Positions 7,310 through 26,729 of a stretch of DNA of 64,000 nucleotides are shown piece by piece. Source of the DNA: Chloroflexota bacterium (GTDB lineage: Bacteria > Chloroflexota > Limnocylindria > Limnocylindrales > CSP1-4); assembly GCA_947475545.1 (NCBI GenBank), contig CANJLL010000002.1, forward strand, positions 144,950 to 208,949. Reading direction: 5' to 3'. The notes below the pieces were generated by a model. The model saw only the letters and a program-made list of their open reading frames with translations, was not told where the DNA came from and made no database searches. The translations under genes and the position numbers were made by a program. The stretch's first letter is position 1, and every line of letters starts with the position of its first letter.

Positions 7310-7334
7310 CAGACCGGCCCTGGAGGCGCGTGCT

Positions 7335-8033
7335 GTGAAGAGCAACGTGTCCGGACTCGGCGGCGGCGGGAAGCTGGGGGTGCTCCTGGCAATCCCCGAC
7401 TTCCCGATGCTGCGGGCCGGCTTCCGCTCCATCATCGACGGCGAGCCTGACATGCGGGTCGTGGGCGATGTCGACGGCGCCGCGCTGGTCGATGAGCTCG
7501 ACCGGACCGGGGCCGACGTGGTCATCGCCGAATGCCACCCACGCGGGGATGACCGCGCGTCCTTCCCGGCCATCGAGGCCATCAAGGCCGTCCGCCCCAC
7601 GACCCGGCTGATCACCATCGACTACCGGACCGCCGGCGACCACTTCTCGCAGGTCCTCAAGGCCGGCGCCGACGGCTTCCTGGGCCGCGAAGCCGGCCCG
7701 GACGACGTCATCAGCGCCGTCCGGAGCGTGAGCCGCGGACAGACGTACGTCAGTCCCGCGGTCGTGACCCGAATGGTCAACGCCTTCGTCCTCCATAGCG
7801 ACCAGGCCACCGCCGAGGACGCCTACGCCTCCCTCACCGAGCGAGAGCGCGAGGTGCTCCTCCTGGCCGCGGTGGGGCATACCAACCGCGAGATCGCCGA
7901 GGCGATCCACCTGTCCGAGCAGACGATCCACAACTACCGCGCCACGGTGATGGAGAAACTGGACCTCCACGACCGGATGGACCTGCTCAAGTACGCGATC
8001 CGACGCGGGCTGGTGAACACCGCCGACCTGTAG
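7335..8033 (+). CDS. LuxR/NarL-family response regulator with degenerate receiver (phospho-acceptor Asp apparently absent)
   Basis: GTG at 7335 with GGAGG 8 nt upstream. C-terminal LuxR HTH (LTEREREVLLLAAVGHTNREIAEAIHLSEQTIHNYR). In the receiver, the DD pair is replaced by PD and the D-site reads VVIAECHP. Confidence 0.8.
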   Translation: MKSNVSGLGGGGKLGVLLAIPDFPMLRAGFRSIIDGEPDMRVVGDVDGAALVDELDRTGADVVIAECHPRGDDRASFPAIEAIKAVRPTTRLITIDYRTAGDHFSQVLKAGADGFLGREAGPDDVISAVRSVSRGQTYVSPAVVTRMVNAFVLHSDQATAEDAYASLTEREREVLLLAAVGHTNREIAEAIHLSEQTIHNYRATVMEKLDLHDRMDLLKYAIRRGLVNTADL

Positions 8034-8675: not shown

Positions 8676-9173
8676 CTACTGCCGATGTGTCGGCGGGGTC
8701 GCCGGGCTGTCCCAGACCCGGCCTTCCGCGATCAGCTCCTCGGCGACCTGCACGACGACGTCGCGCCGCCGATCGCCGGGAATGTCCTGGCCTTCAAGCG
8801 CCATCGTCTGGGACACATAGCCAATCTGCTGCTCAGCGGCCTTGATCGCATGGCGCTGAACCGTGTCCTGGAGGGACGTGACCGGCACCAACGCATAGAC
8901 CACCCGACAGTCGAGGGCCTCGGCGACCTGCGCCAGCTTGGCCAGGGAGATGCCTCCGCGCGTCTCGGACGCCTCCAGTTGGGAGATGGCGGCCGCCGAG
9001 ACCCCGACGCGTGCCGCGAGGGCGGCCTGACTCATGCCCAGCGCATCACGGACGGCGCGAATCCATCCGGCGTGGGGGCGGGCAAACGGGGCGGCCTGGA
9101 GGTCGGCCAGCCGACGATCAAGCTCTCGCCGAGCCTGGGTGGCGCGATCGATGGTCTTCATGAAGGTATACAT
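8676..9173 (-). CDS. HTH (XRE-type) protein, mobile mystery protein A-like
   Basis: HTH LGMSQAALAARVGVSAAAISQLE. There are 7 nt before the Fic-B gene. Confidence 0.75.
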   Translation of the reverse strand: MYTFMKTIDRATQARRELDRRLADLQAAPFARPHAGWIRAVRDALGMSQAALAARVGVSAAAISQLEASETRGGISLAKLAQVAEALDCRVVYALVPVTSLQDTVQRHAIKAAEQQIGYVSQTMALEGQDIPGDRRRDVVVQVAEELIAEGRVWDSPATPPTHRQ

Positions 9174-9369
9174 TACTCAAGGACGCCGCTATGTCAAGGT
9201 ATTCCTTGCTCAACGGCGTCCACACTTCAATGCATACCTTGAGTCTCGCCTTCCATCCGGCACGTGGAGCCTATGTTGCGCGACACGACGCCGGGGCGGT
9301 AAAGTGTGCCTGGCCAATTACCTTGGTCACTGCGGCACACTTCATGGACCCTCGCGGAGCATTCGCGCC
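9174..9369. promoter_or_regulatory. AT-richer divergent promoter/operator region with repeated TCAAGGTAT motifs
   Basis: tgAAGGTATac, gTCAAGGTATtcc and the inverted copy gcATACCTTGAg lie within ~100 bp between the divergent MMP-A and Fic genes. Confidence 0.5.
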
Positions 9370-10407
9370 ATGACGATCACCAAGTCGGGAAGAGGACGTC
9401 CCAGCCGGGCGTACGTCCTCGCCCAGGTCGACATCGGGATGCAGGATCTCGCGCGAGCCGGAGGGCTCCCAAGCCCAACCGAGAACGAGCAGATCTGGCG
9501 TGACATCTGGTTCGAGGAGGCTCACCACAGCACGGCCATCGAAGGCAACACCCTCGTGCTGAAGGAGGTCCGAACCCTCCTCGCCGAGGGTCGGTCCGTC
9601 GGGAACAAGGAGCTCTGCGAGTACCTCGACGTTCAAGGCTATGCCAGGGCGGCCGAATGGGTCTACTCGCAGGCCTTGGGACCGGGTGACGCGGCGTGGG
9701 AGGGCAGGGGGCGCATCTCCCGAACGGAGCTCCGCGAGATCCATCGCCTGGCCGTTGGCCTTTCCTGGGACGTCTGTCCGCCGGACCACCCGCCACTCGA
9801 TCCGCGCGAGCGGGCCGGCAGCTGGCGCGTCCACGACATCGCGGCGTTCGCCGATGGCATGGTCCCACCGCCCTGGACGGAGGTGGACGCCCGGGTCTCG
9901 GACCGGCTCGCCGCCATCGATGCGGGACCCGGTGAGGGCGAGCACATCCTCGTCCACCTCGCGCGGATGCACAACGGGTTCGAGCGCATCCACCCGTTCC
10001 GCGACGGCAATGGGCGCGCCGGACGCCTGGTCCTGAACCTGCTGCTGGTTCGGGCAGGCTACCCGCCCACGGTCGTGCGCAAGGCCGGGCGGACTCGCTA
10101 CCTGCTCGCCATGCGCAGGGCCGACCGGGATGATCCCGGGCCGCTCGCCGAGCTGATCGCCCGCGGCGTCAAGGAGAGCCTGGACCGGTTCCTCCTCCCC
10201 AACCTGGCTGGGCCCGTGAAGCTGCTACCCCTGTCGGCACTCGAACGTCCCGGCCTGACGGTGAGGGGCCTTCGTTCCGCCGCCGAAAAGGGCACGCTGC
10301 GCGCGCAGCGTGACGGCGCCGGGCGGTGGATGAGCAGCGCCCGCTGGATCGACGAGTACCGCGCGGCCAGGCGAATGGGACGCCCGCCGAAGGCGCCCGA
10401 GGCATGA
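9370..10407 (+). CDS. Fic-family protein (Fic_N IEGN motif + HPFRDGNGRAGR core)
   Basis: ATG at 9370 (MTITKSGRGRP...). Its stop overlaps the next gene's ATG (ATGA). Confidence 0.8.
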   Translation: MTITKSGRGRPSRAYVLAQVDIGMQDLARAGGLPSPTENEQIWRDIWFEEAHHSTAIEGNTLVLKEVRTLLAEGRSVGNKELCEYLDVQGYARAAEWVYSQALGPGDAAWEGRGRISRTELREIHRLAVGLSWDVCPPDHPPLDPRERAGSWRVHDIAAFADGMVPPPWTEVDARVSDRLAAIDAGPGEGEHILVHLARMHNGFERIHPFRDGNGRAGRLVLNLLLVRAGYPPTVVRKAGRTRYLLAMRRADRDDPGPLAELIARGVKESLDRFLLPNLAGPVKLLPLSALERPGLTVRGLRSAAEKGTLRAQRDGAGRWMSSARWIDEYRAARRMGRPPKAPEA

Positions 10408-11648
10408 GCCGGGCCCGCCCCGGGCCGGACAACAACGCCGGCCTCCGCCTCGCCCTGGCCGAGCGCCTGGCCCTCGTCGGCGCCCACCCCGACGACCCCG
10501 ATGAGCTGAGCGCCCGCAAGGCCACGCTGGTCATCGCCACCACCCTGGTCGTGGTGCTCGCGACCGTGTGGGTGGGCATGTACCTGGCGTTGGGTCTGCC
10601 CGGCTCCGCGGCCATCCCATTCGCGTACCAGCTGCTCTCGATCACGGGGCTGGTGTTGTTCGCCCGAACGCGCAGCTGGGCCCGCTTCCGCGCCAGCCAG
10701 CTCTTCCTGATCACGCTGCTGCCGTTCGCGCTGCAATGGAGCCTGGGTGGCTACGGGGCCAGCAGCGCGGTGAGCCTCTGGGCGCTGGAGGGCGCGCTGG
10801 GGGCGCCGTTCTTCCTGCCGGCGGCCGAGGCCGTCCCCTGGTTCGTCCTGTTCGTGGGGCTCACCGTGGTCTCCGGGCTCATCGACCCCGCGCTGGCCGC
10901 CCATCCCGCCGCCATCCCGGGCGCCCTCCGGACGGCCTTCTACGTCCTCAATGTCACCGGCGTTTCGCTGACCGCGTTCCTGCTGCTCCAGTACTCCGTG
11001 CGCGCCCGCGAGGCAGCGCTGGCACGCTCAGACAGCCTGCTGCTCAACATCCTGCCCGCCACCATCGCCCGCCGGCTCAAGCGGAGCACCGGCATCATCG
11101 CCCAGGATCACCCGGACGTGACGGTTCTGTTTGCGGACGTCGCCGGGTTCACCCCGTTCGTCCAGCGGACGTCCGCCGCGGAGGTGATCGGCGTGCTCAA
11201 CGATGTGTTCAGCGCCTTCGACCGCCTAGCCGAGCGCCACGGGCTGGAGAAGATCAAGACGATCGGCGACGCGTACATGGTGGTGGCCGGGGTGCCGGAG
11301 CCGCGGGCGGATCACGCGCAGGCGGCCGCCGACTTTGCCCTCGAGATGCAGTCGGCCATGGCCGAGGTCAGCCGTTCGCACGGCCTCGACCTGCAGGTCC
11401 GCGTCGGGATGGCTACCGGGCCCGTGATCGCCGGCGTCATCGGCGAGCGCAAGTTCGCCTACGACGTCTGGGGCGATACCGTGAACACGGCGAGCCGGAT
11501 GGAATCGCACGGGATCCCCGGGCGCATCCAGGTGACGGAGGCCATACACGCGGCGCTGCGCGACGAGTTCCGCTTCGAGCAGCGCGGCGAGATCGAGGTC
11601 AAGGGCAAGGGTCCCATGCGGACCTGGCTGCTGGTGGGACGGGCGTAG
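10404..11648 (+). CDS. membrane-anchored class III adenylate/guanylate cyclase
   Basis: About 6 TM helices at the N-terminus, then a CHD domain (VTVLFADVAGFT...KTIGDAYMVVAG...GDTVNTASRMES). The ATG at 10404 overlaps the Fic stop. Confidence 0.85.
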   Translation: MSRARPGPDNNAGLRLALAERLALVGAHPDDPDELSARKATLVIATTLVVVLATVWVGMYLALGLPGSAAIPFAYQLLSITGLVLFARTRSWARFRASQLFLITLLPFALQWSLGGYGASSAVSLWALEGALGAPFFLPAAEAVPWFVLFVGLTVVSGLIDPALAAHPAAIPGALRTAFYVLNVTGVSLTAFLLLQYSVRAREAALARSDSLLLNILPATIARRLKRSTGIIAQDHPDVTVLFADVAGFTPFVQRTSAAEVIGVLNDVFSAFDRLAERHGLEKIKTIGDAYMVVAGVPEPRADHAQAAADFALEMQSAMAEVSRSHGLDLQVRVGMATGPVIAGVIGERKFAYDVWGDTVNTASRMESHGIPGRIQVTEAIHAALRDEFRFEQRGEIEVKGKGPMRTWLLVGRA

Positions 11649-14191: not shown

Positions 14192-14812
14192 GGGGACCTA
14201 CCTCGCTGACCCGGGCTGCGCCGTAGCTCCCGCAACCCGCGGACTCCTGTCCGCCCACGGTACGCCTTCCCCCGCCATGACGGGCCAGTGCCCAAGTACC
14301 CATGCCGCGGGGGCCGGATGGACGGGTTACGGGACCGCGCCACGCGGGATCGGGCCGGCGGCGCCTTGCGGCGGCGGATCTTCCGGCCGACCCGAGGCGC
14401 CAGGCAGGTTGGCGCATCGGGATGTTCCCCCCGGATACAACCTGACGAGAATCGCGCTACCGATCGGGCTTCGGGGTCGACATTTGCCGGGTCGACCCCC
14501 CAACTCCGGTGATTCTGTACCGGCAAGGAACCAATTCGGCGATTTCTGGCCTCTTGGGCCTGCCAGTGGGGGAATCAACGACAGGTTGTCCTCCACGGGA
14601 ACATCCGTCGGGCCGGACGGCCCGGACGGGGTCCGCGTGGCCCGGCTCCGCATGGCAAGTGCCACGGACCCGCTCCGCATGGCCCGCGTCGGCGGGGGCC
14701 CGATCGCGAAGCGCGCGACGGAGCATCGGGCCGAACGCCAACGGCATCGGGCGGGCGCTGGTACTTCCGGGTCGTGGTGCGGATTGCGGCGGACTGCGAC
14801 GGTCCGGGTGCG
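14192..14812 (+). promoter_or_regulatory. long (~620 bp) non-coding leader upstream of a secreted peptidase gene, a candidate structured cis-regulatory RNA
   Basis: No credible ORF. It holds a perfect 9-bp palindrome GGGGTCGAC-N9-GTCGACCCC (~14470-14505) and G-rich blocks (GGGGGAATCA, CCACGGGAAC, CCGGACGGGGTCC). Confidence 0.35.
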
Positions 14813-16354
14813 ATGTTTCCCGGCCGTCACCCCAGCCCCAGCCGGTTGGCGGCCTCTCCAGACAACGTACGCCGAGGTCCCCGCTTGCCCCAGTTCGCGC
14901 CCAGGCGCGCCCGTGGCCTCACGCGCGCACGCGCCGTCGTCCTGGTGGCGGCATCGATGCTCGCCCTGCTCACACCCTCGGCCGCCTCCGCCGCCTCCCC
15001 GCAGCCGTTCCCCGGCTACCAGCCCGCCTTCGTGACCGAGCGCGAAGACGGGCCCTGGCGGGACTGCGTCTGGGCGTCCGCCGCGATGCTCCTGGACAAG
15101 TGGACGAGCGGGGAGACGATCGTCAGCCGCCAGCGGCTCCGGGCCCTGTCCGGCGATGGTCAGGGCGGCTCGGGCCTCAGGGAGGTGCGGGCCGCGTTTG
15201 CGCGGCTGGGATTCCGCCTCACGATCTCGCCGTACGACAGCGTGGCCATCGACTGGCCCGATCTCCTGGATCGCCTTGCCGCGGGCGGCGGGGCGATCCT
15301 GCTGGGCGACGACGGCCTGCTGCCGGCCCAGTTCGGCCGGTGGGATCCCGTCTTCTGGGGCCGAACCGGCGACCTGGACGACCATGCGCTCTACCTGGAC
15401 GGCTACGACCGGGAGACCGGCAGGATCCTGGTCATGGACCCGCTGGCTCCCGCCGACTGGGGCGGTGAATGGATCCCCGTCTCGGCGCTCAAGCGGTTTG
15501 CCTGGCGGAACGGCAACGGCGCCCTCTCGGTGGCCATCACGCCGCCCGCGCTGACATCGTCGTTCCAGGGCGTCACGCTGGGGGCCCCAACGGCCACAGC
15601 CGATGCCGCCGCGGTGCATCTGGCGTGGCCGATCGGGGCCGCTCCCGCCGGGTGGACCGACCAGGGCACCAGGCTCACCACGCAGATCGTGCCGGTCGAG
15701 GTCATGGACCCGCTGGCCTGGATCGTGAGGGCGCTCCCCGCGAACGCCGCCGCCCGTCTGCGGGCGGACGCCGTCATGTCCAGTGCCGACGGGTTGCTCA
15801 GGGCTTCGATCCCGCTGCCGGCGGCGTCGGGGATCTACAGCGTCTCCGTCTCGCTGGCGGATCAGGTCCTGGGCCAGCTGGTGGCCGCCGCCGGGCCGTT
15901 CAACCTGTATTTCCCCGGCCCGCGAGCGGCCGCCTACGAGATCCCCGACCGCGTCGTGGCCGCCGCCGGGTCGCTGGCGTATATCCCCGTCAGGGTCACC
16001 AATGCGGGCAGCGAATCATGGGCGGAAGTGCCGTTCGTTCCCTGGCTGTCACCCGTCGACCAGGGCTGTCGGAACATGCGGCTGACCGGTAGCTGGGTGC
16101 GCGATCCGTCCACGACGCCCGCGGGCGCCGCCTTGCCAAGGCCGCCCGCGTCCTTCGACCTGGGCGCCCTCCACCTGGAAGCCGGCGACTCGAAGACGAT
16201 CGATGCCGCCGTCCGAATGCCGGTGAACGCGGGCTCCTGGCGGCTGGTCTTCGACCTGGTCGACGACCTTGGCCAATCGCTGGCGGTCACGGGCTCGGCG
16301 CCCGGGGTGATCATCGTGGAGACGGTTGGGCCAGGGCCGGTGGGCGGGCAGTAG
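14813..16354 (+). CDS. secreted protein with N-terminal papain-fold (C39/NlpC-like) cysteine peptidase-like domain
   Basis: Signal peptide ...RARAVVLVAASMLALLTPSAASAAS. Candidate catalytic Cys (WRDCVWASAAMLL) and His (DDHALYLDGYD). The start could be a downstream TTG. Confidence 0.6.
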   Translation: MFPGRHPSPSRLAASPDNVRRGPRLPQFAPRRARGLTRARAVVLVAASMLALLTPSAASAASPQPFPGYQPAFVTEREDGPWRDCVWASAAMLLDKWTSGETIVSRQRLRALSGDGQGGSGLREVRAAFARLGFRLTISPYDSVAIDWPDLLDRLAAGGGAILLGDDGLLPAQFGRWDPVFWGRTGDLDDHALYLDGYDRETGRILVMDPLAPADWGGEWIPVSALKRFAWRNGNGALSVAITPPALTSSFQGVTLGAPTATADAAAVHLAWPIGAAPAGWTDQGTRLTTQIVPVEVMDPLAWIVRALPANAAARLRADAVMSSADGLLRASIPLPAASGIYSVSVSLADQVLGQLVAAAGPFNLYFPGPRAAAYEIPDRVVAAAGSLAYIPVRVTNAGSESWAEVPFVPWLSPVDQGCRNMRLTGSWVRDPSTTPAGAALPRPPASFDLGALHLEAGDSKTIDAAVRMPVNAGSWRLVFDLVDDLGQSLAVTGSAPGVIIVETVGPGPVGGQ

Positions 16355-16358
16355 GGAT

Positions 16359-17087
16359 CTAACCCGCTGTGATTGGTTTGAGGACGAAGACTATGGCCCT
16401 GTACTCGCGACCGTCTTTGACAGTCCGCTCAGCCTCATGCCTGAGATACTCAAACCGACCACCGTAGCGGTAGACCTCGCCGAGCTTCTGGAAGAGGTGC
16501 AGTCGGGGACTTCGGTCAATCACGGCTCGGTTGTGGGCCGTCAAGACCATGTCTCCCTCACCGCTCCACGCGCCGTAGTAGCGGTACAACCCAGCCTCCC
16601 AGCGGTCTCGGTATCCATGCTCGTGGGCGGCATTGGGGTCAGAAAAGAGCATGGTGAAGGCGGCGCCGGCTGGAGAACTGATTCCCGTCTGGCGATTGCC
16701 ACCGAACCGATCATGTAGGTGCGTCCGCCGATATGTGTCACCAACAACGAGCGCGCCTTCGGGATCCGCGAGCGGCCCGTCATGGGCCACAACGCGTGGC
16801 TTTCGTTTGTCGGGCCGGGTCGGCGCCCCCAGCTGACCCAGAACGGCCTCCAGGTCGCGTTCAACCTGTGACGATAGGGGCGATCGAAGGGCTGCTCGTA
16901 GGCAACGGACCGCCTCGACGCCTGCTCCGAATTCGGCGGTGCGCGCGATTGTTCGGACGGCGAACGCCGCCATGACCGGATCTCGCAGCCAAGGTTCCAG
17001 CGCGGCGATCGCTGCCGCGCCATGTTTGGCAATGGGGTCACGAAACTCAATCCTCACGGCCGGAGGAGATTCGGTCGCACCAACCAT
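16359..17087 (-). CDS. SRA/YDG-like (PUA-superfamily) modified-base reader domain protein
   Basis: C-terminal half: VGDTYRRTHLHDRFGGNRQTGIS...YRDRWEAGLYRYYGAWSGEG...YRYGGRFEYLRHE...YRAIVFVLKP, matching SRA hallmarks. ATG at 17087, 38 nt after the upstream helicase stop. Confidence 0.6.
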   Translation of the reverse strand: MVGATESPPAVRIEFRDPIAKHGAAAIAALEPWLRDPVMAAFAVRTIARTAEFGAGVEAVRCLRAALRSPLSSQVERDLEAVLGQLGAPTRPDKRKPRVVAHDGPLADPEGALVVGDTYRRTHLHDRFGGNRQTGISSPAGAAFTMLFSDPNAAHEHGYRDRWEAGLYRYYGAWSGEGDMVLTAHNRAVIDRSPRLHLFQKLGEVYRYGGRFEYLRHEAERTVKDGREYRAIVFVLKPITAG

Positions 17088-17125
17088 CGCCTGGTGAAGC
17101 GTTAGGTCACTCGGATCGATTGGCA

Positions 17126-19036
17126 CTAGTCGAGCTCCCGGAAGCCCGACGCGACGAGGAACTCGTAGGTTTCGTCCCACAGTGGCGCCGGCGGGACGAA
17201 CACGACGTTTGCGTCTCGAGCCCTGGTGAGCAGCACGCGGTAGGCATTGACTCTCAGCTGGCGAGCATCACGGATCCGCTGCGGTTGCTGGTACCGCTTC
17301 GCTCGGCTCGTGTCCCAGCGGCCGCCCTTACGGATGAAGTCGGCGCCCCATGCGACGAGAGCGGCGTCGAGCTCTAGGCCCTGAGCTCCGAATTCGGTAA
17401 CGCAAGTTCGAAGTGCGCGGCATGACCGACCGAGGTAGTCGGCATCGCCCTCGACGTACCACGGGCCATATTCAAAGCGCTGAAACCGACCCTGGCTCTG
17501 GTTAGGAATGCCGAAGCGGAACAACTCCTTGTCGCGCGCACTCGCCACAATCCCAAACCTGGCGTCAGGATCACCATCGTATCGACCTCGCAGATACGCC
17601 TTCGCTTGATCGAGATCTCGCGTCACCCGGAGGTGGTGCCCCTGGCCTTCGAGGCGGCGTGCGAGGTCCCCAAGATCCTCGGCGGCCTCGTCGCCGACAA
17701 GGGTCCCGACGAAGCGATCGATCTCAGTGGCCAGATGAAAGCGGATCGCCACGTCGAGGTGCAAGGCGGACGACCTGTGAAATGAGCCATACCCGTCAAA
17801 TGTCACCGCGACCTGAGAAGGTCCGTGGACGGTCCAACCTCCCCCCGATCCATCGACCGCAGCGCGCCATTGGCGGAGTCCGCCCTCCTCACCAATGTGG
17901 ATCTCCTGGCCCTGGCCGATGAGACCGATGACGACGCACCAACCCGGAACCCGCTCGGCGAACTCAAGGAAGTGTTCGGGTTCCGATCGGCCATCTCCGC
18001 GCCCACCATGCTTCTCCGCGACCTGGGCGGCGTCCCACGCCCGTTGTGCCTCGTCGTAGATCAGGACGTGCTCGCCCGGGATCAGGGATGGATTCCGTGT
18101 ATAGCGCTCCACGTAGTCCTTGACGCCGCGGACGAAGGCCTTACCCCCGCCCCCAGAGCCGCGAAACTCGTATTGGAGAACTTCCACGAGGGGGCCGTTG
18201 CCCGACAGGTATACGCCGGGTGGCAGCTTCCGGCCATCCTGCCGTGCGACGGCGAGGTCGTCGAGGTACCGGGCATGGGCCACCTGGAGGCCGACGAGCG
18301 TCTTCCCGGCTCCAGGAACTCCGGTGAGGAGGATCAGGCGACGGGTCCCCGTCGCCGCGGCCTCGTGGATGATTCGATTGACTTCGTCCAGAGCCGGCTT
18401 GGTGTTCATCGCCGCGCGGTGAACACGCCGCAACGTCCCGCTGTCAAACAGCTCACGCGCCGCTTCGACGATGGTTGGCAGAGGAGAGTAGGCCTCGGCC
18501 GCAAGGAACCGCTCGGGATCGATCGGAGGAAGCTGGCCTCGATCGATCTCATCGACCAGCCCATCGATGGCGTCGAGGCCCACGACTTGAACGCCGGCGA
18601 TCTCCCCCATGCGCCCAGATGCGCGAGTCAGGACCAGCACGGGGTGCACGGCCCGGTTGTGGCACTCCGCGTGATAGGCCAGCAGGTCCCGCGCATAACC
18701 GGCGGCTTGATCGACGTCGGCGAGAATTGCTGCTCCCTTGCCCTTGACCTCCAGAACGAGCACGGCACCCGACGCAAGAAAGATCACGTCCGGCCGTCGT
18801 CGCTCCATCGGCAGCTCGTACTCAAGAATGGCGGAGTAGTCGGCGGACGGCGCATATCTGGCCATCACCTCGCTTACTTCGCGCTGCAGTGGAGAAATGG
18901 AGTCATCCCAGGCCCGAATCTGCTCGGGCGAGGCGTCACGGATGAATTGCTCAAGCGAGCCGCGAATCACAACTGGCGACGTTGCCCGAAACTCTTGCCA
19001 TGGGGACGCCCAGCCATAGCGAGCTACCTCGGTCAT
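17126..19036 (-). CDS. NERD-domain + DUF2075 (P-loop SF1-like helicase) protein
   Basis: N-terminal NERD (PDVIFLASGAVLVLEVKGK), Walker A LLTGVPGAGKT, DEAQ box LIYDEAQRAW, C-terminal LLTRARDANVVFV. ATG at 19036 with GGAGGAG SD. Confidence 0.8.
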   Translation of the reverse strand: MTEVARYGWASPWQEFRATSPVVIRGSLEQFIRDASPEQIRAWDDSISPLQREVSEVMARYAPSADYSAILEYELPMERRRPDVIFLASGAVLVLEVKGKGAAILADVDQAAGYARDLLAYHAECHNRAVHPVLVLTRASGRMGEIAGVQVVGLDAIDGLVDEIDRGQLPPIDPERFLAAEAYSPLPTIVEAARELFDSGTLRRVHRAAMNTKPALDEVNRIIHEAAATGTRRLILLTGVPGAGKTLVGLQVAHARYLDDLAVARQDGRKLPPGVYLSGNGPLVEVLQYEFRGSGGGGKAFVRGVKDYVERYTRNPSLIPGEHVLIYDEAQRAWDAAQVAEKHGGRGDGRSEPEHFLEFAERVPGWCVVIGLIGQGQEIHIGEEGGLRQWRAAVDGSGGGWTVHGPSQVAVTFDGYGSFHRSSALHLDVAIRFHLATEIDRFVGTLVGDEAAEDLGDLARRLEGQGHHLRVTRDLDQAKAYLRGRYDGDPDARFGIVASARDKELFRFGIPNQSQGRFQRFEYGPWYVEGDADYLGRSCRALRTCVTEFGAQGLELDAALVAWGADFIRKGGRWDTSRAKRYQQPQRIRDARQLRVNAYRVLLTRARDANVVFVPPAPLWDETYEFLVASGFRELD

Positions 19037-19091
19037 GGCTCCTCCTCTTCGTCCCGACTCGTCTGAGTTTCGACCGCACCGAAGGTAACCC

Positions 19092-21317
19092 GTGGCGCAA
19101 GCCCGGAGTGTCCCAACCCGTCAGTCATCTGACCAGGCGCCGGCTGGCACGTCGGCGCCGTCCGGCCTGTTCTCGGACGGCCACCCCGTACTGATCCCGC
19201 TGGCCGTGTCAGGCGAGGTGGCACCTGCTGGCCGCAGACTACCGCGCATGGAAGCCGTGGAGCCCGAGACAGACAAGCGCCTCCAGGCCCTGCTGGAGCA
19301 GATGTTCGGCCCACAGGCTGAGTTTCGGCCGGGCCAGCTGGAGGCCATCCAGGCCGTCCTTGATGGGTCGCGCACCCTCGTCGTCCAGCGGACCGGATGG
19401 GGGAAGAGCCTGGTCTACTGGCTGGCCACGCGGATGCTGCGCGACCAGGGCCGGGGGCCCACCCTGGTGATCAGCCCGCTGCTGTCGCTGATGCGCAACC
19501 AGATCGACGGGGCCACGGCCCTTGGCCTCCGCGCGGTGACCATCAACTCCGCCAATCGGGCCGAATGGGATGACGCCCGGGCGGCGCTGGAGGCGGGCGG
19601 TGTCGACGCCCTCCTGATCTCGCCGGAACGGCTGGGGAATGAGCGGTTCACCACGGAGATCCTGCCGTCGATTCCGGGCGGGATCGGCCTTGTCGTGATC
19701 GACGAGGCGCACTGCATCTCCGACTGGGGCCACGACTTCCGGCCCGACTATCGGCGGATCCAGCGCATCATCAACAACCTGCCGCCCAACGTGCCGCTCC
19801 TCGCCACCACGGCGACGGCCAACGACCGTGTGGTCGCGGACGTCATCGAGCAGCTGGGTGGTGATGTGGTGACCCTGCGGGGTCCGCTCGCCCGCGCCTC
19901 GCTGCGTCTCCAGGCGATCTACCTGCGCGACGGCGCCGAACGGCTGGCGTGGCTGGCGGAACACCTCCCGGGCCTGCCGGGCAGCGGCATCGTGTACTGC
20001 CTCACCATCGCGGACACGGAGCGGGTCGCCGAGTGGCTCCGACTGAACGGGGTGGACGCGGCGGCCTACCACGCCAGGGTGGAGCCGGATCGGCGGGTGG
20101 AGCTGGAAGGCCGCCTCCTCCGGAACGACCTCAAGGTCCTCGTCGCCAGCACCGCCCTGGGCATGGGCTTTGACAAGCCGGACCTGGGCTTCGTCATCCA
20201 CTACCAGCGACCCGGTTCCGTCATCGCGTACTACCAGCAGGTGGGCCGCGCCGGGCGCGCCATCGACACCGCGTACGGGGTGCTGCTGAGCGGCCGCGAG
20301 GACGACGAGATCAACGACTACTTCATCCAGAGCGCGTTCCCGCCCGAGGCGGACATGCGCGCGGTCCTGGCGGCCCTGGAGCGCGTCGAGACAGCCACGG
20401 TGCCGGCGCTGGAGTCGCGGCTCAACATCCGGCGCAGCCGGATCCAGCACATCCTCAAGCTCCTGGAGCTGGACGGCGCGGTTGGCCGCGAGGGATCCAG
20501 CGTCTTCCGAACGCCCAACCCCTGGCTGCCCGACACCGAGCGGATGGAACGCGTCACCGCCCGCCGACGCGAGGAGCTGGCGCACCTTCGCGCGTACATG
20601 ACCCACGACGGCTGCCTGATGGCCTATCTGACGTCGGCACTCGACGATCCCAGCCAGGCGCCGTGTGGGCGCTGCGCCCCGGAGACCGGACAGCTGCTCC
20701 CGGTCACGCCCAATCCGGCCATGATCCAGCGGGCCATCGGCTTCCTGCGCGGCGCATGGCGCGGCATCGAGCCGCGGCTCCAGTGGCCGCCCGGGGCGCT
20801 GGCCGGGCACAGCGGCCGGATCACGCCGCCGAACGAGCCGGGCCTGGCGCTCTCGTTGTACGGCGACGCGGGCTGGGGCAGGCTGGTCGCCGACGGCAAG
20901 TACCGCGACGAGCGGTTCGACCAGGCGCTGGTGGAGGCGTCGGCCCAGATGATCCGGGCGCGCGGCCTGGTGCCGGCGCCGGCCTGGGTCACGGCGATCG
21001 CGTCCTTGCGGCGGCCAGGCCTGGTCCCCGATTTCGCCCGGCGGCTGGCCGAAGCGCTTGGGCTTCCGTTTCACGACGTGCTGGCGGCCGCCAATACCCG
21101 GCCCCAGAGGGAGATGGAGAACAGCGGGGCGCAGCTCAGGAACGTGGCCGGCATGACCGTGGCCGGCGCCTGTCCGACGGGCCCCGTCCTGCTGGTCGAT
21201 GACGTCGTGGACTCGCGCTGGACGCTGACGTACGGCGGTTGGCTGCTGCGCCAGCACGGTGCGGGTCCGGTCCACCCGTTTGCGCTCGCGATGGCCACGC
21301 CGCAGGATGACGGCTGA
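19092..21317 (+). CDS. RecQ-family helicase fused to C-terminal ComF/type-I PRTase-like domain
   Basis: RecQ motifs TGWGKSLVY, VIDEAHCISDWGHDFRPDY, ATATA and a Zn-finger C..C..C..C. The C-terminal ~150 aa carry a PRTase loop VLLVDDVVDSRWTLT. GTG at 19092 (GAAGG SD) or ATG at 19248. Confidence 0.8.
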   Translation: MAQARSVPTRQSSDQAPAGTSAPSGLFSDGHPVLIPLAVSGEVAPAGRRLPRMEAVEPETDKRLQALLEQMFGPQAEFRPGQLEAIQAVLDGSRTLVVQRTGWGKSLVYWLATRMLRDQGRGPTLVISPLLSLMRNQIDGATALGLRAVTINSANRAEWDDARAALEAGGVDALLISPERLGNERFTTEILPSIPGGIGLVVIDEAHCISDWGHDFRPDYRRIQRIINNLPPNVPLLATTATANDRVVADVIEQLGGDVVTLRGPLARASLRLQAIYLRDGAERLAWLAEHLPGLPGSGIVYCLTIADTERVAEWLRLNGVDAAAYHARVEPDRRVELEGRLLRNDLKVLVASTALGMGFDKPDLGFVIHYQRPGSVIAYYQQVGRAGRAIDTAYGVLLSGREDDEINDYFIQSAFPPEADMRAVLAALERVETATVPALESRLNIRRSRIQHILKLLELDGAVGREGSSVFRTPNPWLPDTERMERVTARRREELAHLRAYMTHDGCLMAYLTSALDDPSQAPCGRCAPETGQLLPVTPNPAMIQRAIGFLRGAWRGIEPRLQWPPGALAGHSGRITPPNEPGLALSLYGDAGWGRLVADGKYRDERFDQALVEASAQMIRARGLVPAPAWVTAIASLRRPGLVPDFARRLAEALGLPFHDVLAAANTRPQREMENSGAQLRNVAGMTVAGACPTGPVLLVDDVVDSRWTLTYGGWLLRQHGAGPVHPFALAMATPQDDG

Positions 21318-22387
21318 TGACCATCCACCATCAGCTGGGCGCCAACGGACTGGCCATCCTCGCCCTCACGGCTCGAGGCGGCGCCGGGCGGCGGGCCGGG
21401 ATCGGCGCGGGGTCCCGGGTCGGGCAGGCGGATCTCCCTGCGCCGCTTCGATCGCGGGAGTGGGCGCACCTCGCGCGAAGCCTCGCCCTTGCGGGCGCGC
21501 AGCCGGCCGACCTGCTCGGCTGGAGCTCGGCGGAGATCGCCGCGGCCCTTGGTACAACCCCGGCCGCCAGCGACGAGCTGGCACGCCTGGCCAGCCGGGC
21601 ATCAACGCTGGCCCTGGACGTGGAGCGACTGGGCAGCCGCGGGATCTGGCTCCTGAGCGTGGACGACTCCGCCTACCCGGGGCGGCTGCTCGCGCGCCTC
21701 GGCGACCTGGCGCCGCCAATCCTGTATGGATCGGGCGCACTCGAGGTCCTGGGCCGCGGGGGCATCGCGATCGTCGGCTCGAGGGATGCGGACACCGACG
21801 CGCTGGCGTTCGCGTCGGCCGCCGCCGCCGCAGCCGCCGGGGCAGGCCGCTCCGTCGTGTCCGGCGGGGCGCAAGGCATCGATGTCGCCGCGATGTCTGC
21901 CGCCGCGGCGGCGGGCGGTTTGGTGGTGGGCGTGCTCGCCGAGAGCCTGGAACGGCGGATCCGGGCGGTGGAGACGCGGGCGCTCATCGCGGAGGAGCGA
22001 CTGGCCCTGGTCTCACCGTACGGTGCCGACGTGTCGTTCTCCATTGGGAATGCCATGGGCCGCAACCGGCTGATCTACTGCCTCGCGGATGCGGCGATCG
22101 TGGCGGCAGCGGCCGAAGGCGAAGGGGGAACCTGGGCCGGCGCCACGGAGGCGCTCGACGCGCGATGGGTGCCCGTCTACGTCCGCGTCTCCGCCTCGGC
22201 GCCGTCGGGGAACCGGGCCCTTGCGGATCGTGGCGCCATCCCATTCGCGTCGGACGCGGCGGCGACTGGCGGCCTGCCGTTCGCGGGCGACGACCCGGCG
22301 GGCGCGGCGCTCCCGGCGTCGTCCGTCTCCCCGGCACCGCCCAAGCGGGCGGCCGAGCAGCAGACGCTCTTTGGTGGCGACCGGTAG
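21317..22387 (+). CDS. DprA/Smf-like (SLOG Rossmann) protein
   Basis: GIAIVGSRDADTDALAFA...VVSGGAQGIDVAA...NRLIYCLADAAIV. The ATG overlaps the RecQ-PRTase stop (TGATG). Confidence 0.8.
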   Translation: MTIHHQLGANGLAILALTARGGAGRRAGIGAGSRVGQADLPAPLRSREWAHLARSLALAGAQPADLLGWSSAEIAAALGTTPAASDELARLASRASTLALDVERLGSRGIWLLSVDDSAYPGRLLARLGDLAPPILYGSGALEVLGRGGIAIVGSRDADTDALAFASAAAAAAAGAGRSVVSGGAQGIDVAAMSAAAAAGGLVVGVLAESLERRIRAVETRALIAEERLALVSPYGADVSFSIGNAMGRNRLIYCLADAAIVAAAAEGEGGTWAGATEALDARWVPVYVRVSASAPSGNRALADRGAIPFASDAAATGGLPFAGDDPAGAALPASSVSPAPPKRAAEQQTLFGGDR

Positions 22388-22496
22388 ACCTGGTAACGGG
22401 GAGGCCTGCCGACGGCGTCGCCGAGCTGAGCCCGGCAGCCCGCGCCAGGCGGGCTTCATTGGTTGACTTCTACCCAGTCATGGGTAGACTTCTACC

Positions 22497-22745
22497 GTGA
22501 CCCTCAACATCAAGAATCCGGAGACCACGCGGCTCATCCGCGAGCTCGCGCAGGCCACCGGGGAGTCGCTGACACAGGCCCTGACCACGGCGGTCCGGGA
22601 GCGCCTGGGTCGCGTACGCGCGCAGGCCCAGCCGGACGACGTCTGGGCCATCGTGGACGAGATCCGGTCGCGGCTGCCCGCCGGCTACCTGGACCAGGAT
22701 TTCGACGGCCTGCTCTACGACGAGACGACGGGGCTCCCCAGGTGA
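22497..22745 (+). CDS. vapB: type II antitoxin, VapB-like (Rv0623-type MTLNIKNPE...)
   Basis: GTG at 22497. 82 aa. Its stop overlaps the toxin start (GTGA). Confidence 0.75.
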   Translation: MTLNIKNPETTRLIRELAQATGESLTQALTTAVRERLGRVRAQAQPDDVWAIVDEIRSRLPAGYLDQDFDGLLYDETTGLPR

Positions 22746-23182
22746 TCGTGGACACGTCGGCGCTGGTCGCGATCCTGCGTCGGGAGGCGGACGCGCCCGC
22801 CATCCTCCAAGCGCTGCGGTCCCTCAGCCCGCGACGGATGTCGGCCGGGACCTACCTTGAGCTGGGGCTCGTCATCGACGGGGCGCGGGATCCGACGGCA
22901 TCGACGCTGCTGGACGACCTGATCGAGGCGTTGGACATCACCATCGAGCCGGTCACGGCGGCCCAGGCCCGCATCGCTCGCGGCGCGCACCAGGAGTTCG
23001 GCCGCGGGAGCGGCCATCCCGCCGGCCTCAACTTTGGGGATTGCTTCGCCTACGCGCTGGCCAAGGATCTCGACGAGCCGCTGCTCTTCAAGGGCGACGA
23101 CTTCGCCCAGACGGATATCCCCTTCGTGGGCCGGCGCCAGGAGCGCGGGCGCCTTCGCGAGCTCCTCGCCGCGTACGGCTGA
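22742..23182 (+). CDS. vapC: PIN-domain toxin VapC
   Basis: VIVDTSALVAIL...LNFGDCFAYALA. Lies in the frame of ORF 22463..23182. Confidence 0.75.
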   Translation: MIVDTSALVAILRREADAPAILQALRSLSPRRMSAGTYLELGLVIDGARDPTASTLLDDLIEALDITIEPVTAAQARIARGAHQEFGRGSGHPAGLNFGDCFAYALAKDLDEPLLFKGDDFAQTDIPFVGRRQERGRLRELLAAYG

Positions 23183-23222
23183 CGGCGCGGCACCGACCGA
23201 TCGAGGGCCGTCCTGGCTTCTG

Positions 23223-23272
23223 AACTGCTAAGTTGGCACGAATTGGCACTCGATTAGCAGTTGCCCTCGGCC
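23223..23272. terminator. bidirectional hairpin between convergent genes (9-bp arms AACTGCTAA/TTAGCAGTT; the loop holds a TTGGCAC direct repeat)
   Basis: Direct reading between the vapC end (23182) and the convergent HD gene. There is no U-run, so it may instead be a protein-binding site. Confidence 0.4.
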
Positions 23273-23409
23273 GCGGTCAGGCGCCCGCTGCTGGTCTGCC
23301 ATCACGCCCCCGCCAGCCGCTCCATCTCCCCCACCACCCGATCCAGCTCGGCGATCAGGTCCGTGGGCGCGGCCGGGTTCGCCTGGAACGCCGTCACCAG
23401 CGAGCGGTA

Positions 23410-23907
23410 CTACCAGATTGGGTCCGAATCCGGGTTGAAGCGCCCGAACATCGACGGCCCGTGCCGGCGGAGGTCCGCGACGATGCTGCGGGCGTTGTGG
23501 AGCTTGTCCGAGGCCGAGACCAGCAGCACCGCGGCGTCCGCGTGGGCCAGGTGGGCGATGTAGGCCTCCTTGCGCGGCGGCCAAGGCGGCTTCGACTCCT
23601 CGTGGGCATCCGTGCAGGCCAGGACCAGCCGGAGGACTTCGGAGCCGAAGGCCGCCACCGTCTCCCGCGCGCCGGGCGCGTAGTGGACGTCCTCGATGGC
23701 GTCGTGCAGGACGGCCGCGATGGCCTGGTCCTCGTTGGCCCCGTAGTCCAGGGCGATGCTGCACGTCCCCAGCAGGTGCGACGCGTAGGGAATGGTGGTC
23801 CCCTTGCGCAGCTGGGCGGCGTGCATCTCCAGGGCCACGCTCACGGCGCGCACGAACCGCGGGGTGTACGCCCACGGCTCCGCCGGGATCGGATGCCCGG
23901 CTGTCAT
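23410..23907 (-). CDS. HD-domain phosphohydrolase, ending at an in-frame TAG. The same frame continues for 32 more codons to 23313.
   Basis: HD motifs HLLGTCSIALDYG...LHDAIED...DKLHN. After the TAG the frame reads YRSLVTAFQANPAAPTDLIAELDRVVGEMERLAGA, then TGA at 23313. Confidence 0.7.
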   Translation of the reverse strand: MTAGHPIPAEPWAYTPRFVRAVSVALEMHAAQLRKGTTIPYASHLLGTCSIALDYGANEDQAIAAVLHDAIEDVHYAPGARETVAAFGSEVLRLVLACTDAHEESKPPWPPRKEAYIAHLAHADAAVLLVSASDKLHNARSIVADLRRHGPSMFGRFNPDSDPIW

Positions 23908-23917
23908 CGGCTCACCA

Positions 23918-23952
23918 TTGACGCATCTGGTGTCGGAATTCATACTCTCTTT
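23918..23952 (+). promoter_or_regulatory. sigma70-like promoter (TTGACG-17-CATACT) for the AbrB-type antitoxin operon, with an ATGCAT-centred imperfect palindrome downstream
   Basis: Direct reading ttgacgcatctggtgtcggaattcatact. AT-rich for this genome. Confidence 0.45.
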
Positions 23953-23980
23953 AACTCAGTATGCATATTGGAGATTGGGT

Positions 23981-24262
23981 ATGGGCAGCCGCGTTGGCGA
24001 GCGGGGCCAGGTGACCATCGAGAAGGCCATCCGGGAGCAGCTGGGCGTGTACGCCGGCGACCAGGCCGTCCAGCGGGTGGAGGACGGCCGCGTCGTGATC
24101 GAGTTCATCCCGGCACCACACGACCGAAGCCTGCTGGGTGTCCTGAAGGACAAGGTCCGGCGCTGGCCGGAGGACGAAAGCGACTTCGCGGCGATCCGCG
24201 AGTCGGCCTGGGAGACGCCCGATCCGGATCGGCTGCCACCCGTTGACGATCGGTCCGCATGA
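23981..24262 (+). CDS. AbrB/MazE/SpoVT-family antitoxin
   Basis: GQVTIEKAIREQLGVYAGDQAV...GRVVIEF. GGAGA SD. The stop overlaps the toxin ATG (ATGA). Confidence 0.75.
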   Translation: MGSRVGERGQVTIEKAIREQLGVYAGDQAVQRVEDGRVVIEFIPAPHDRSLLGVLKDKVRRWPEDESDFAAIRESAWETPDPDRLPPVDDRSA

Positions 24263-24654
24263 TCGCGCTCGATACCTCGGTCATCGTCCGGTACCTGGTC
24301 CAGTCGCCGCCCGAGCCCGCCCGGCGCGCCGGCGAGCTGCTGGATGGTGGCGGGGAGATCGGGATCCCGGTGGTGGTGCTGCTGGAGACCGCGCACGTGC
24401 TCCGCACGATCTACGCGGTCCCGCGACCGGACGTCGCCACCGTGCTCATCGAGCTGCTGACGCGACGGAACGTGCGGCTCCTCGGCCTGGGCGTCGACGA
24501 TGCGATCGACGCCCTGGTGCGAGCCCGGGCCCTGCCGGGGACGCCGATCGCCGACGCGCTCATCGTGGCCATGGCCAAGGCCGCCGGAGCGCGGCCGCTG
24601 TACACGTTCGACCTGGGGCTCGCGCGCCACGGGATCGAGATCGCCGTTCCGTGA
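24259..24654 (+). CDS. vapC: PIN-domain toxin VapC
   Basis: MIALDTSVIVRYL...LLETAHVL...ADALIVAMA. Confidence 0.8.
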   Translation: MIALDTSVIVRYLVQSPPEPARRAGELLDGGGEIGIPVVVLLETAHVLRTIYAVPRPDVATVLIELLTRRNVRLLGLGVDDAIDALVRARALPGTPIADALIVAMAKAAGARPLYTFDLGLARHGIEIAVP

Positions 24655-24694
24655 CGTTCCGCTGGTCTTGACCGCGCCCGTGGGACGTCCTACC

Positions 24695-25024
24695 ATGCGT
24701 CCTACCATGTCAGAGACTTCTTCCTACCTCGCCACCGGCGTCGCGGAGGCGGTGACCCCGTACGGCGCGGATGGCTCGGGCGCCCCGCACACCAAGTTGT
24801 CCATCAGCCTGCCATCGGACCTGGTGGCCGTGATCCGCCAGGTCTCGGAGCAGACCGGGCTGACGATGAGCGCCACCATCGGTGCCTGCGTTCGCCGGAC
24901 GCTGGCCCTGGTGGAGCAGGAGCGCCTGGACCGCGCATTGGAGCTGGACGCGGAGGAGAACCTGGCGTGGGCGGGTGCGCATCTGCCCGCCGCGGCGCGG
25001 CTCTGGGAGTCAATCGAGTGGTAG
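24695..25024 (+). CDS. ribbon-helix-helix (CopG-like) antitoxin
   Basis: KLSISLPSDLVAVIRQVSEQTGLTMSATIGACVRRTL. The 12-bp duplication cgtcctaccatg creates two candidate ATGs (24695 and 24707). Confidence 0.6.
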   Translation: MRPTMSETSSYLATGVAEAVTPYGADGSGAPHTKLSISLPSDLVAVIRQVSEQTGLTMSATIGACVRRTLALVEQERLDRALELDAEENLAWAGAHLPAAARLWESIEW

Positions 25025-25392
25025 GGATCGGTCGCGTGCTGCCCCCAGTCGGGCCCCGGCGCGGCGACGTTCACTTCGTGGCCTTCCCGGACCTGGATGG
25101 TCGTGTCATCAGGGGGCCGCATCCCGCAGTAGTGGTCCAGTCGGACCGCCTGGCCCGGTCGGCCACCGTGATCGTGGCACCGCTGACTAGCGCCCCCCGC
25201 TCCGCCCCTGAACGTCCCCCGTACCTGGTGCCGCTGGCGGCCCGCGAGGCGGACCTGCCCCGGGATGGCTTCATCAAGTGCGACCAGCTGACCACGCTCC
25301 CGGTCTCCCTCCTGGGTCCCCGGGTTGGTCGGCTCAACCCCGAGGCCATGGGCCGGCTGGACGCCGCCCTGCGGTTCGTCCTGGCGCTCTGA
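25018..25392 (+). CDS. mazF: MazF/PemK-family toxin
   Basis: RRGDVHFVAFP...HPAVVVQSD...TVIVAPLTS...GFIKCDQLTTL. The GTG overlaps the antitoxin stop. Confidence 0.7.
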   Translation: MVGIGRVLPPVGPRRGDVHFVAFPDLDGRVIRGPHPAVVVQSDRLARSATVIVAPLTSAPRSAPERPPYLVPLAAREADLPRDGFIKCDQLTTLPVSLLGPRVGRLNPEAMGRLDAALRFVLAL

Positions 25393-25415
25393 TCGGGCCG
25401 CCCGGCGGCTGAGGG

Positions 25416-25832
25416 CTATGCGGCGCCTCCGGGCCGCGCGTTCGGCACCGTCGCGAATCCCGCCGTCCGGAAGTCCGCGTCCAGCGCGATCGCCCGATCG
25501 ATGCCCTCCCGCCGCATGCAGGCGAAGCTGGTCCGGTCGACCAGGGAGACGGAGGATTCGACCGTGTCTCGAAAGGCGGTCAAGGCCGCGGCATGGAGCT
25601 CCGCGTCCACCGGCATGACCTCCAGGGCAGGAAGCACGTGGTCGATGATGCCGGCGGCCGTCGCCGCGCCAAAGCGCCGGCGGGCCACCGCGAGGGTCTC
25701 AACCACGACGTAGGCGTGTGTCACGAGGCGCTCCGTGTGGCCGGCGGCGAAGGCCGCCACGACGCCCTCGTGCGCCGGGTCGTCGCGGTCCACCAGCGCC
25801 AGAATGCCGCTGGTGTCGACGAACAGGGTCAC
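25416..25832 (-). CDS. vapC: PIN-domain toxin VapC
   Basis: MTLFVDTSGILALVDRDDPAH...VVVETLAV...DRTSFACM. Confidence 0.8.
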   Translation of the reverse strand: MTLFVDTSGILALVDRDDPAHEGVVAAFAAGHTERLVTHAYVVVETLAVARRRFGAATAAGIIDHVLPALEVMPVDAELHAAALTAFRDTVESSVSLVDRTSFACMRREGIDRAIALDADFRTAGFATVPNARPGGAA

Positions 25833-26071
25833 CAGCGATCCCCGCTCAGGACCTCATCGTGATCGCGCGCGACGGTGCCGGTTCCGGACGCCGCGGTGCC
25901 GGCCACCGACAGCAGCCCCTCCATCCGGGCCGCGCGCTCGGCGTCCTGGGTGGGCACCACCTGGTCCACCGCGTCGCGGATGACCGCGGCCAGCGACACG
26001 TGACGGCGGCGAGCCTCACGGCGGAGGCGCTCCATCTGCTCCTCGGTCAGCGAGACCTGCGTCCTGATCAT
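25829..26071 (-). CDS. ribbon-helix-helix antitoxin (VapB/CopG-like)
   Basis: MIRTQVSLTEEQMERLRREARRRHVSLAAVIRDAV. Overlaps the vapC start (ATGA). Confidence 0.7.
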   Translation of the reverse strand: MIRTQVSLTEEQMERLRREARRRHVSLAAVIRDAVDQVVPTQDAERAARMEGLLSVAGTAASGTGTVARDHDEVLSGDRW

Positions 26072-26177
26072 GGGCGGGATGATAACAGTAGCGCTCCTGA
26101 TGATGTAACCCTTGCCTTCCGCTGGCCGACGCGCTCGCGCCATCCGGGCCCAGCCCGACCGGTCATACCCCCATGTA

Positions 26178-26729
26178 TTACCGGAGGCGGTAGTGCTTCG
26201 CCCTTAACGCGCTGACCGCCGCCTCCGCGTCGTTGGCGTAGATGATCCCGGCGAACGGGCGGGCGGCCGTGATGAGCTCGTACGCCTCCTCCGGCTCGTG
26301 GCCCAGCGCGCGCAGCACCGCGTAGGCGGCCGACGGCCCGCGGTTGATCCCCGCCCCGCAGTGGAGCAGCACGCGGGCGTTGGGGTTCGCGTCCAGCGCC
26401 CGCAGCGAGAAGGTGATCGACCGCTCGAACCAGGCCGTCCGCTTGGCCGTGCCGTCGTCCCAGGTGCCGTTGGCCAGGTGGACCGCCCGGCCGGCCAGGA
26501 GCCGGCGGACATCGGCCTCCAGCTCGCGGGCCGCGGTCACGACGTGGGTGATCCCGGCGTCCAGCACGGCCCGCGCGTCCGCCTCGTCCCAGAGCGCGCC
26601 GCCGGTGGCGACGCGCGGGGTGACGAAGTCGAAGTCCCCGGGCCGGCGGAGGGTCCACCCGCCCGGGGTCCAGGTCCGGCCGCCTGGCGTGCGGCGGCCG
26701 GGACCGGGTTCGGGAGTCCGCTCCGCCAT
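26178..26729 (-). CDS. dual-specificity / tyrosine protein phosphatase (CX5R)
   Basis: Active site VLLHCGAGINRGPS. The ATG lies 1 nt after the VWA gene stop (TGAgATG). Confidence 0.8.
   Translation of the reverse strand: MAERTPEPGPGRRTPGGRTWTPGGWTLRRPGDFDFVTPRVATGGALWDEADARAVLDAGITHVVTAARELEADVRRLLAGRAVHLANGTWDDGTAKRTAWFERSITFSLRALDANPNARVLLHCGAGINRGPSAAYAVLRALGHEPEEAYELITAARPFAGIIYANDAEAAVSALRAKHYRLR

Follow-up and report, generated by a model that had tools for sequence, protein, structure and literature searches.

The two genes and their products

Within a 64,000-nucleotide (nt) stretch of a Chloroflexota genome (contig CANJLL010000002.1; the whole stretch is called the window here, and positions are counted from its first letter), we analysed a pair of genes encoding a predicted nuclease-helicase and a smaller protein predicted to read modified DNA bases. 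The listing of open reading frames (ORFs) in the window contains both, on the same strand and where an earlier reading of this DNA (the original prediction) had placed them: one at 17126-19036 (-) and one at 16359-17180/17126/17087 (-), the latter with alternative 5′ ends. Because both have many homologues with very low E-values, neither is a chance ORF. A scan for promoters and terminators was uninformative for the locus. The features of the pair are listed below.

17126-19036, minus strand: nuclease-helicase gene, 636 amino acids (aa) plus stop (ORF listing, PDC-S41 match, homologues)
19039-19047, minus strand: Shine-Dalgarno sequence, 2 nt 5′ of the helicase ATG (read from the sequence)
18527-19036, minus strand: N-terminal PD-(D/E)xK nuclease domain, aa 1-170 (fold and motif)
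18743-18823, minus strand: E72-to-K98 motif with putative catalytic residues E72, D83, E96 and K98, to which Q110 is added (alignment)
17192-18340, minus strand: superfamily 1 (SF1) helicase/NTPase domain, SLFN-g3_helicase (formerly DUF2075), aa 233-615 (Pfam, E 1.8e-52)
18299-18322, minus strand: Walker A, GVPGAGKT, aa 239-246 (motif read)
18044-18058, minus strand: Walker B, YDEAQ, aa 327-331 (motif read)
17216-17236, minus strand: VLLTRAR, aa 601-607 (motif read)
16359-17126, minus strand: small (reader) gene, 255 aa plus stop, with a GTG start coupled to the helicase stop
17135-17139, minus strand: GGGAG, a Shine-Dalgarno-like element 8 nt 5′ of the small-gene GTG, within the 3′ end of the helicase gene
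16827-17126, minus strand: HEAT/alpha-repeat-like helical domain, aa 1-100 (motifs RIEFRDPIA, FAVRT)
16764-16826, minus strand: low-confidence linker, aa 101-121 (model confidence 50-59; variable columns in alignment A1)
16362-16763, minus strand: predicted ScoMcrA-type SRA domain, aa 122-255 (motifs GGNRQTGIS, LFSD, GYRDRW, YYGAWSGEGDM, AIVF)

The original prediction described the smaller protein as 242 aa long and encoded 38 nt downstream of the helicase gene, a start that is probably wrong. That form begins at an ATG at 17087; an in-frame GTG at 17124-17126, which shares 1 nt with the helicase TAG at 17126-17128 (the junction reads GAC-TAG-TG), gives 255 aa. The small protein is most likely this longer form, translationally coupled to the helicase gene, rather than a 242-aa product after a 38-nt gap, because the TAGTG overlap is accompanied by the GGGAG element, the string DLTLxEA encoded 5′ of the ATG is kept among small-protein homologues (alignment A1), the 255-aa form exists as a recorded cluster member, and the helicase-reader junction at another locus (L010) has an identical 1-nt overlap. 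The perfect Shine-Dalgarno sequence claimed for the helicase gene can be read directly as GAGGAGGAG, 2 nt before its ATG.

The AlphaFold2 model of the small protein, with a predicted local distance difference test (pLDDT) score of 89, consists of a six-helix domain (residues 1-100), a disordered linker and an alpha/beta domain (residues 122-255). In a fold comparison, the highest values were obtained for ScoMcrA SBD-SRA (12.8), SUVH5 (12.7), TagI (11.7) and UHRF1 (11.4), with LpnPI, AbaSI, MspJI, SauUSI, PvuRts1I and AspBHI ranking lower than UHRF1. Foldseek, an independent method, also gave ScoMcrA as its best match (E 1.3e-7, probability 1.0), ahead of MspJI, SUVH5, AspBHI, TagI, LpnPI and UHRF1/2. 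When a profile of the SRA domain built from 24 diverse copies (A5) was searched against the PDB, ScoMcrA was the sole match (E 5.3e-5), and the alignment pairs the GGxxQxGI, FSD, YxDG and YxGxG.GDxxLTxGN motifs of the two. Homologues of the small protein form 16 clusters in 5.8 billion proteins, among which GYxD and YYGxW..GDM..GN are invariant; all of them carry a precomputed PF26348 (SRA_ScoMcrA) annotation, mostly flagged weak. Direct sequence searches of the small protein yielded no SRA match, whether against the local Pfam, NCBIfam and PADLOC libraries or, as a single sequence, against the PDB, and a full-length profile found nothing relevant in the PDB; of these sequence-based searches, the trimmed, broader domain profile was the one that reached ScoMcrA. 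An SRA/PUA-like fold had been set beforehand as a test of the original prediction, and the Foldseek match, the profile match to ScoMcrA and the PF26348 annotation of every homologue agree with it. The weak precomputed annotation, the domain profile and the predicted fold together identify the C-terminal domain as a predicted SRA domain of the ScoMcrA type. The SRA-like motifs quoted in the original prediction are present in the downstream ORF, and its SRA domain stands; the additional N-terminal HEAT-like domain had gone unseen. ScoMcrA prefers DNA containing 5-hydroxymethylcytosine (5hmC) (PMC7461809), and the SRA domain of the small protein probably reads modified DNA bases as its predicted ligand.

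The large protein retains intact Walker A, Walker B and VLLTRAR motifs. These are the motifs quoted when it was first called a DUF2075 P-loop helicase, a call upheld by the Pfam SLFN-g3_helicase match. Over residues 6-624 it aligns to positions 3-633 of the 657 in the PADLOC profile PDC-S41 (E 3e-124), a candidate single-gene defence family. The only other PADLOC match was a marginal one to IetA. No Nhi model was matched, in a library not established to include one; the likeness to Nhi noted here is one of architecture. The NERD domain assigned to the N terminus had to be dropped: Pfam NERD (PF08378) gave no match to the 636-aa protein at E<=0.1, and the generic PD-(D/E)xK superfamily takes its place. 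In an alignment of residues 1-228 across 18 diverse homologues, the pattern ...LEYELP..RRPDV......LEVKGK....DQA contains five residues that never vary (E72, D83, E96, K98 and Q110), the predicted fold is NucS/Dna2-like, and McrC is among the fold matches. By fold and motif, the domain is thus a predicted PD-(D/E)xK nuclease and not demonstrably NERD. A PDB sequence search found no relative of the large-protein family. Scoring was limited to the 8000 candidates with the most words in common with the query, and among these >6189 homologues were found at E<=1e-10.

Conservation and setting of the pair

A helicase of the PDC-S41 type adjoins the reader gene at approximately nine of twelve distinct loci, the window locus (L001-L006, all from one genome) being counted as one. 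The adjacent pair is found in the window and at L010, L011/L012, L008, L014, L009, L061, L071 and L084; at L014 the gene order is swapped and the genes overlap by 4 nt, and at L009 the pair is divergent, its helicase being 38% identical. The two functions also occur in single chains. A profile search of 1.84 billion representatives retrieved a 912-aa protein (P0148) that combines helicase, HEAT and SRA domains, and since two independent contigs, one of 668 kb and one from a Logan assembly, encode the identical protein, the fusion is not a sequencing error. In a second protein (P0165), the helicase C terminus is joined straight to the SRA domain, without a HEAT domain. Co-conservation of the two genes, also set beforehand as a test, is therefore borne out by adjacency at most independent loci, by one swap of gene order and by the 912-aa fusion.

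In a neighbour-joining tree that took in only those partnered or fused helicases complete enough to include, all of them fall in one subclade. This distribution suggests that the enzyme usually works by itself and that the reader is an optional accessory confined to one clade. A universal alternative partner of the solo helicases was considered and rejected, as the genes downstream of them are unrelated (DsbB, CoA-transferase, LarA, ZacA and UDG) and cluster only by close synteny. The ZacA gene (L016, 7908-9152; PADLOC E 2.4e-115; Pfam DUF6361) begins 6 nt after a solo helicase that is 67% identical to that of the window. At two loci from metagenome-assembled genomes of Methanomicrobiales (L058, 3030-3536; L074, 7597-8196), a UDG-superfamily gene lies directly 3′ of a PDC-S41-type helicase (~40% identical) and may be another base-sensing or base-processing helicase partner.

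The guanine-plus-cytosine (GC) content is 0.63-0.66 over 16000-19000, compared with about 0.70-0.75 elsewhere in the window (~0.71 around it), a dip that fits horizontal transfer of the two genes as a module. A complete PsyrTA/RqlHI module at 19092-22387 (+) is divergent from the helicase gene, and a dense toxin-antitoxin cluster (22400-26200) follows; the annotations of the latter are the precomputed Pfam matches of the identical locus L001.

19092-21317, plus strand: PsyrT, a RecQ-like helicase with a phosphoribosyltransferase tail (PADLOC E 1.8e-264); the true start is probably near 19248
21317-22387, plus strand: PsyrA, DprA-like (PADLOC E 4.4e-92)
22497-23182: PSK_trans_fac/PIN
23410-23943: HD_4
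24259-24654: PIN
~24967-25392: PemK
25416-26143: PIN and RHH

PsyrTA was considered as a third and fourth component of the system and rejected, being absent from every other helicase-SRA locus. On the other side of the pair, a gene at 14774-16354 (+) encodes a protein of 489-526 aa with no Pfam or PADLOC match; it converges on the SRA gene, the two stops lying 4 nt apart, and is kept beside the pair in the same genome only. Farther away, at 9034-11648 (+), a Fic gene is followed by a gene for a guanylate/adenylate-cyclase-domain protein with a membrane N terminus, and a second Fic gene lies nearby (L001 Pfam). No DNA methyltransferase was called within +/-10 kb of the pair, and a crude motif test confined to the 64-kb window found no C5- or amino-methyltransferase catalytic motif in ORFs of at least 200 aa. 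The lack of a methyltransferase in the neighbourhood and window fits a system of type IV better than one of types I-III.

The same SRA subfamily recurs in other settings. It is fused to PD-(D/E)xK nucleases (P0164, P0168 and P0173) and to HNH nucleases (P0190 and P0193). On two haloarchaeal plasmids (L095, 5731-10693, NZ_CP027032.1; L096, 5443-10414, NZ_CP045489.1), it lies near the N terminus of a 1207-aa protein annotated as 'AAA family ATPase', whose residues 901-1072 form a McrB-type AAA_5 domain. The McrC position that follows is taken by an overlapping ORF of 448-450 aa, and the locus looks like an SRA-McrBC-like type IV system. One family of phage proteins (PHROG 15103; Gordonia phage Sidious gp63) contains the subfamily as well. 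Its fusion to classical modification-dependent restriction architectures supports a targeting role for the SRA domain.

The HEAT-like N-domain (RIEFRDPIA...FAVR) likewise recurs with other C-terminal domains (P0279, P0269, P0226, P0234 and P0271; L080, L081, L086, L088, L089, L092 and L093), namely an OGG-like glycosylase (PF21790), a Cys-rich domain, one with the motif GYWVMRT..LRQGWGW and another uncharacterised one. At L092 a VRR-NUC-like nuclease precedes it, and the copy at L088 sits among a UDG-family gene, a GmrSD gene and BrxC/D-like ATPases. No helicase was found at L088 with its 5-kb flanks and P0165 has no HEAT domain, observations that led us to reject the HEAT domain as a dedicated helicase adaptor. 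A scan of metagenome contigs with a narrower N-domain alignment (A3) found 14 loci, mostly short, and a word-indexed protein search with the N-domain returned short fragments only. A rather unlikely reading is that the N-domain marks a wider, undescribed family of exchangeable base-reader subunits, in which it would be joined to varied base-sensing or base-processing domains. The proteins that carry it lie within defence islands and have different effectors as neighbours: an Nhi-like nuclease-helicase, GmrSD, and UDG with BrxC/D-like ATPases. Because the contigs are short, this idea is weakly placed. If true, prokaryotes would possess a swappable sensor layer that retargets generic nuclease/NTPase defence enzymes to particular modifications, and the Nhi-like/PDC-S41 enzymes would be one client of it.

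Candidate function of the pair

Starting from the domain identities, operon structure, conserved adjacency and natural fusions observed here, we favour, with a probability of about 0.55, the reading that the pair is a translationally coupled operon for an ATP-driven, type IV-like module of modification-dependent restriction or defence, split between two proteins. The two parts that define such a system, a reader domain and a nuclease with an intact catalytic motif, are both present (the SRA domain; invariant E72/D83/E96/K98). The small protein would be the sensor, its ScoMcrA-type SRA domain binding incoming DNA at a modified base, which is most likely a cytosine derivative such as 5-methylcytosine (5mC) or 5hmC. 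It would then recruit or license the large protein, whose DUF2075 SF1 motor would translocate on or unwind DNA using ATP and whose N-terminal PD-(D/E)xK domain would cut. In one subclade of the normally solo PDC-S41/Nhi-like family, the reader would thus be an add-on that redirects or sharpens target choice. We infer that the two proteins interact, that the modification is of the kind named, that the reader activates rather than inhibits the enzyme, and that the role is anti-phage.

Several observations weigh against this reading. In terms of sequence, the evidence for SRA is weak: Pfam run locally returned nothing, and the PF26348 match carries a 'weak' flag at most loci. Moreover, the SRA subtype of ScoMcrA, which mediates dimerisation in the crystal, is without the fingers and pocket residues of UHRF1 (PMC6224610), and 5mC or 5hmC binding is therefore not readable from the sequence. 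The reader is absent from 63 of the 65 genome loci with helicase relatives and present in two, and even in the subclade that includes the partnered helicases, 5 of 11 have no reader; with most relatives solo, the helicase evidently works without the reader. Conversely, HEAT-SRA genes lack an adjacent helicase at L007, where the neighbour (5900-7600 (-)) is a frameshifted DUF262/GmrSD-like gene with the motifs DGQQRLTT and HHIFP, at L013, which has no helicase nearby, and at L085, a short contig. At two independent loci the helicase-SRA module or fusion is preceded, at a distance of 2-3 kb, by LigD (L008, 945-3668) or by LigD and Ku (L094, 432-4803); this hints at a context of DNA-end repair and could be coincidence. 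Finally, our literature search found no paper that mentions PDC-S41.

An unlikely alternative, the best placed of those we weighed, is that the HEAT-SRA protein acts as a brake on, or self-protection from, a self-sufficient Nhi-like enzyme, binding either the enzyme or the methylated or hemimethylated DNA of the host and so holding the nuclease away from the chromosome, in the manner of an antitoxin or immunity protein and not of a targeting factor. The prevalence of solo relatives indeed makes the partner dispensable for basic activity, and Nhi acts as a single protein, but helicase and SRA domains joined covalently, as in P0148 and P0165, suit a targeting domain better than an antitoxin. The island is rich in toxin-antitoxin pairs and the ScoMcrA SRA can serve as a dimerisation module; on the other side, fusions of this SRA subfamily to nucleases and to a McrB-type NTPase recur, in the pattern of genuine type IV enzymes, and no self-marking methyltransferase was found in the operon or window.

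Less probable still is a device for DNA repair or replication restart, in which the SRA domain would either flip out a base that is damaged or mismatched or recognise hemimethylated DNA in the wake of the fork, and pass the site on to a Dna2/NucS-like nuclease-helicase. The nuclease fold would suit such a role, as would the LigD genes (accompanied by Ku at L094) that L008 and L094 have 2-3 kb away from the module, and relatives of the HEAT domain that carry OGG-like glycosylase domains or stand beside UDG-family genes. However, the occurrence is rare and scattered (16 clusters among 5.8 billion proteins), the GC content is lower than that of the flanks, the neighbours are defence genes (PsyrTA, toxin-antitoxin, GmrSD and ZacA), and the helicase is a PADLOC defence candidate, so that an accessory defence function fits better than housekeeping repair. 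That a solo Nhi-like gene and a solo reader are merely uncoupled neighbours in a defence island, where unrelated genes crowd together, would accommodate the three HEAT-SRA loci without an adjacent helicase and is highly improbable given the overlapping stop and start codons, an adjacency that survives a swap of order and holds down to 38% helicase identity, and two kinds of natural fusion.

Relation to known systems

Nhi-like/DUF2075 nuclease-helicases are abundant (>6000 relatives) and distantly related to the helicase domain of human Schlafen; little is understood of the way in which they select targets. The SRA-recruiting, partly fused subclade offers a concrete, testable handle on target selection, and it indicates that a defence candidate classed as 'single-gene' can come with optional subunits for specificity. 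If the type IV-like reading is true, an SF1-helicase member would join the small set of ATP-dependent type IV systems (SauUSI and McrBC). Modification-dependent enzymes of such a type also serve as reagents for mapping modified cytosines.

The closest precedents for the large protein are Nhi of S. epidermidis and the Nhi-like proteins (Millman et al. 2022), validated single-gene defence systems with an N-terminal PD-(D/E)xK domain and a DUF2075 helicase, an architecture identical to that of the 636-aa protein. Nhi, Nhi-like and PDC-S41 systems are single-gene and without a modification reader, whereas here a dedicated SRA partner is coupled or fused. The original prediction had not recognised the arrangement as a named system. 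This holds for the pairing, as our literature search found no paper on a helicase-SRA combination or on PF26348; it does not hold for the helicase, which belongs to the candidate family PDC-S41 and has the Nhi/Nhi-like architecture.

SauUSI follows the same logic in one chain, with a nuclease, an ATP-driven helicase and an SRA-like reader of modified cytosine. Its parts are a PLD nuclease, an SF2 helicase and a DUF3427 reader, as opposed to the PD-(D/E)xK nuclease, SF1 DUF2075 helicase and ScoMcrA-type SRA with HEAT-like domain predicted here, and its motor and nuclease have no sequence relationship to those of the large protein; a Pfam scan of the pair found neither PLD nor DUF3427, which places it outside the SauUSI family. 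Split SauUSI-like systems with a separate neighbouring reader, and DUF2075 NTPases beside modification-dependent nucleases, have been noted (Lutz et al. 2019; PMC6765204). ScoMcrA, TagI and ScoA3IV share the ScoMcrA-type SRA reader and cut 5mC or 5hmC DNA; in those enzymes the reader and an HNH nuclease form one ATP-independent chain, whereas here the reader is separate and the nuclease-helicase is predicted to depend on ATP. McrBC resembles the pair in being a two-gene, NTP-dependent type IV system with reader and PD-(D/E)xK nuclease on different polypeptides. In McrBC, however, it is the motor, an AAA+ GTPase, that carries the reader, and the McrC nuclease stands alone, whereas here motor and nuclease are fused, the reader stands alone and the motor is of another class; the Pfam scan found AAA_5 in neither protein of the pair, which is accordingly not a McrBC system. 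The parts are thus known in kind, both as type IV systems with a separate reader and an NTP-dependent effector and as Nhi-like defence, and it is their combination that is new.

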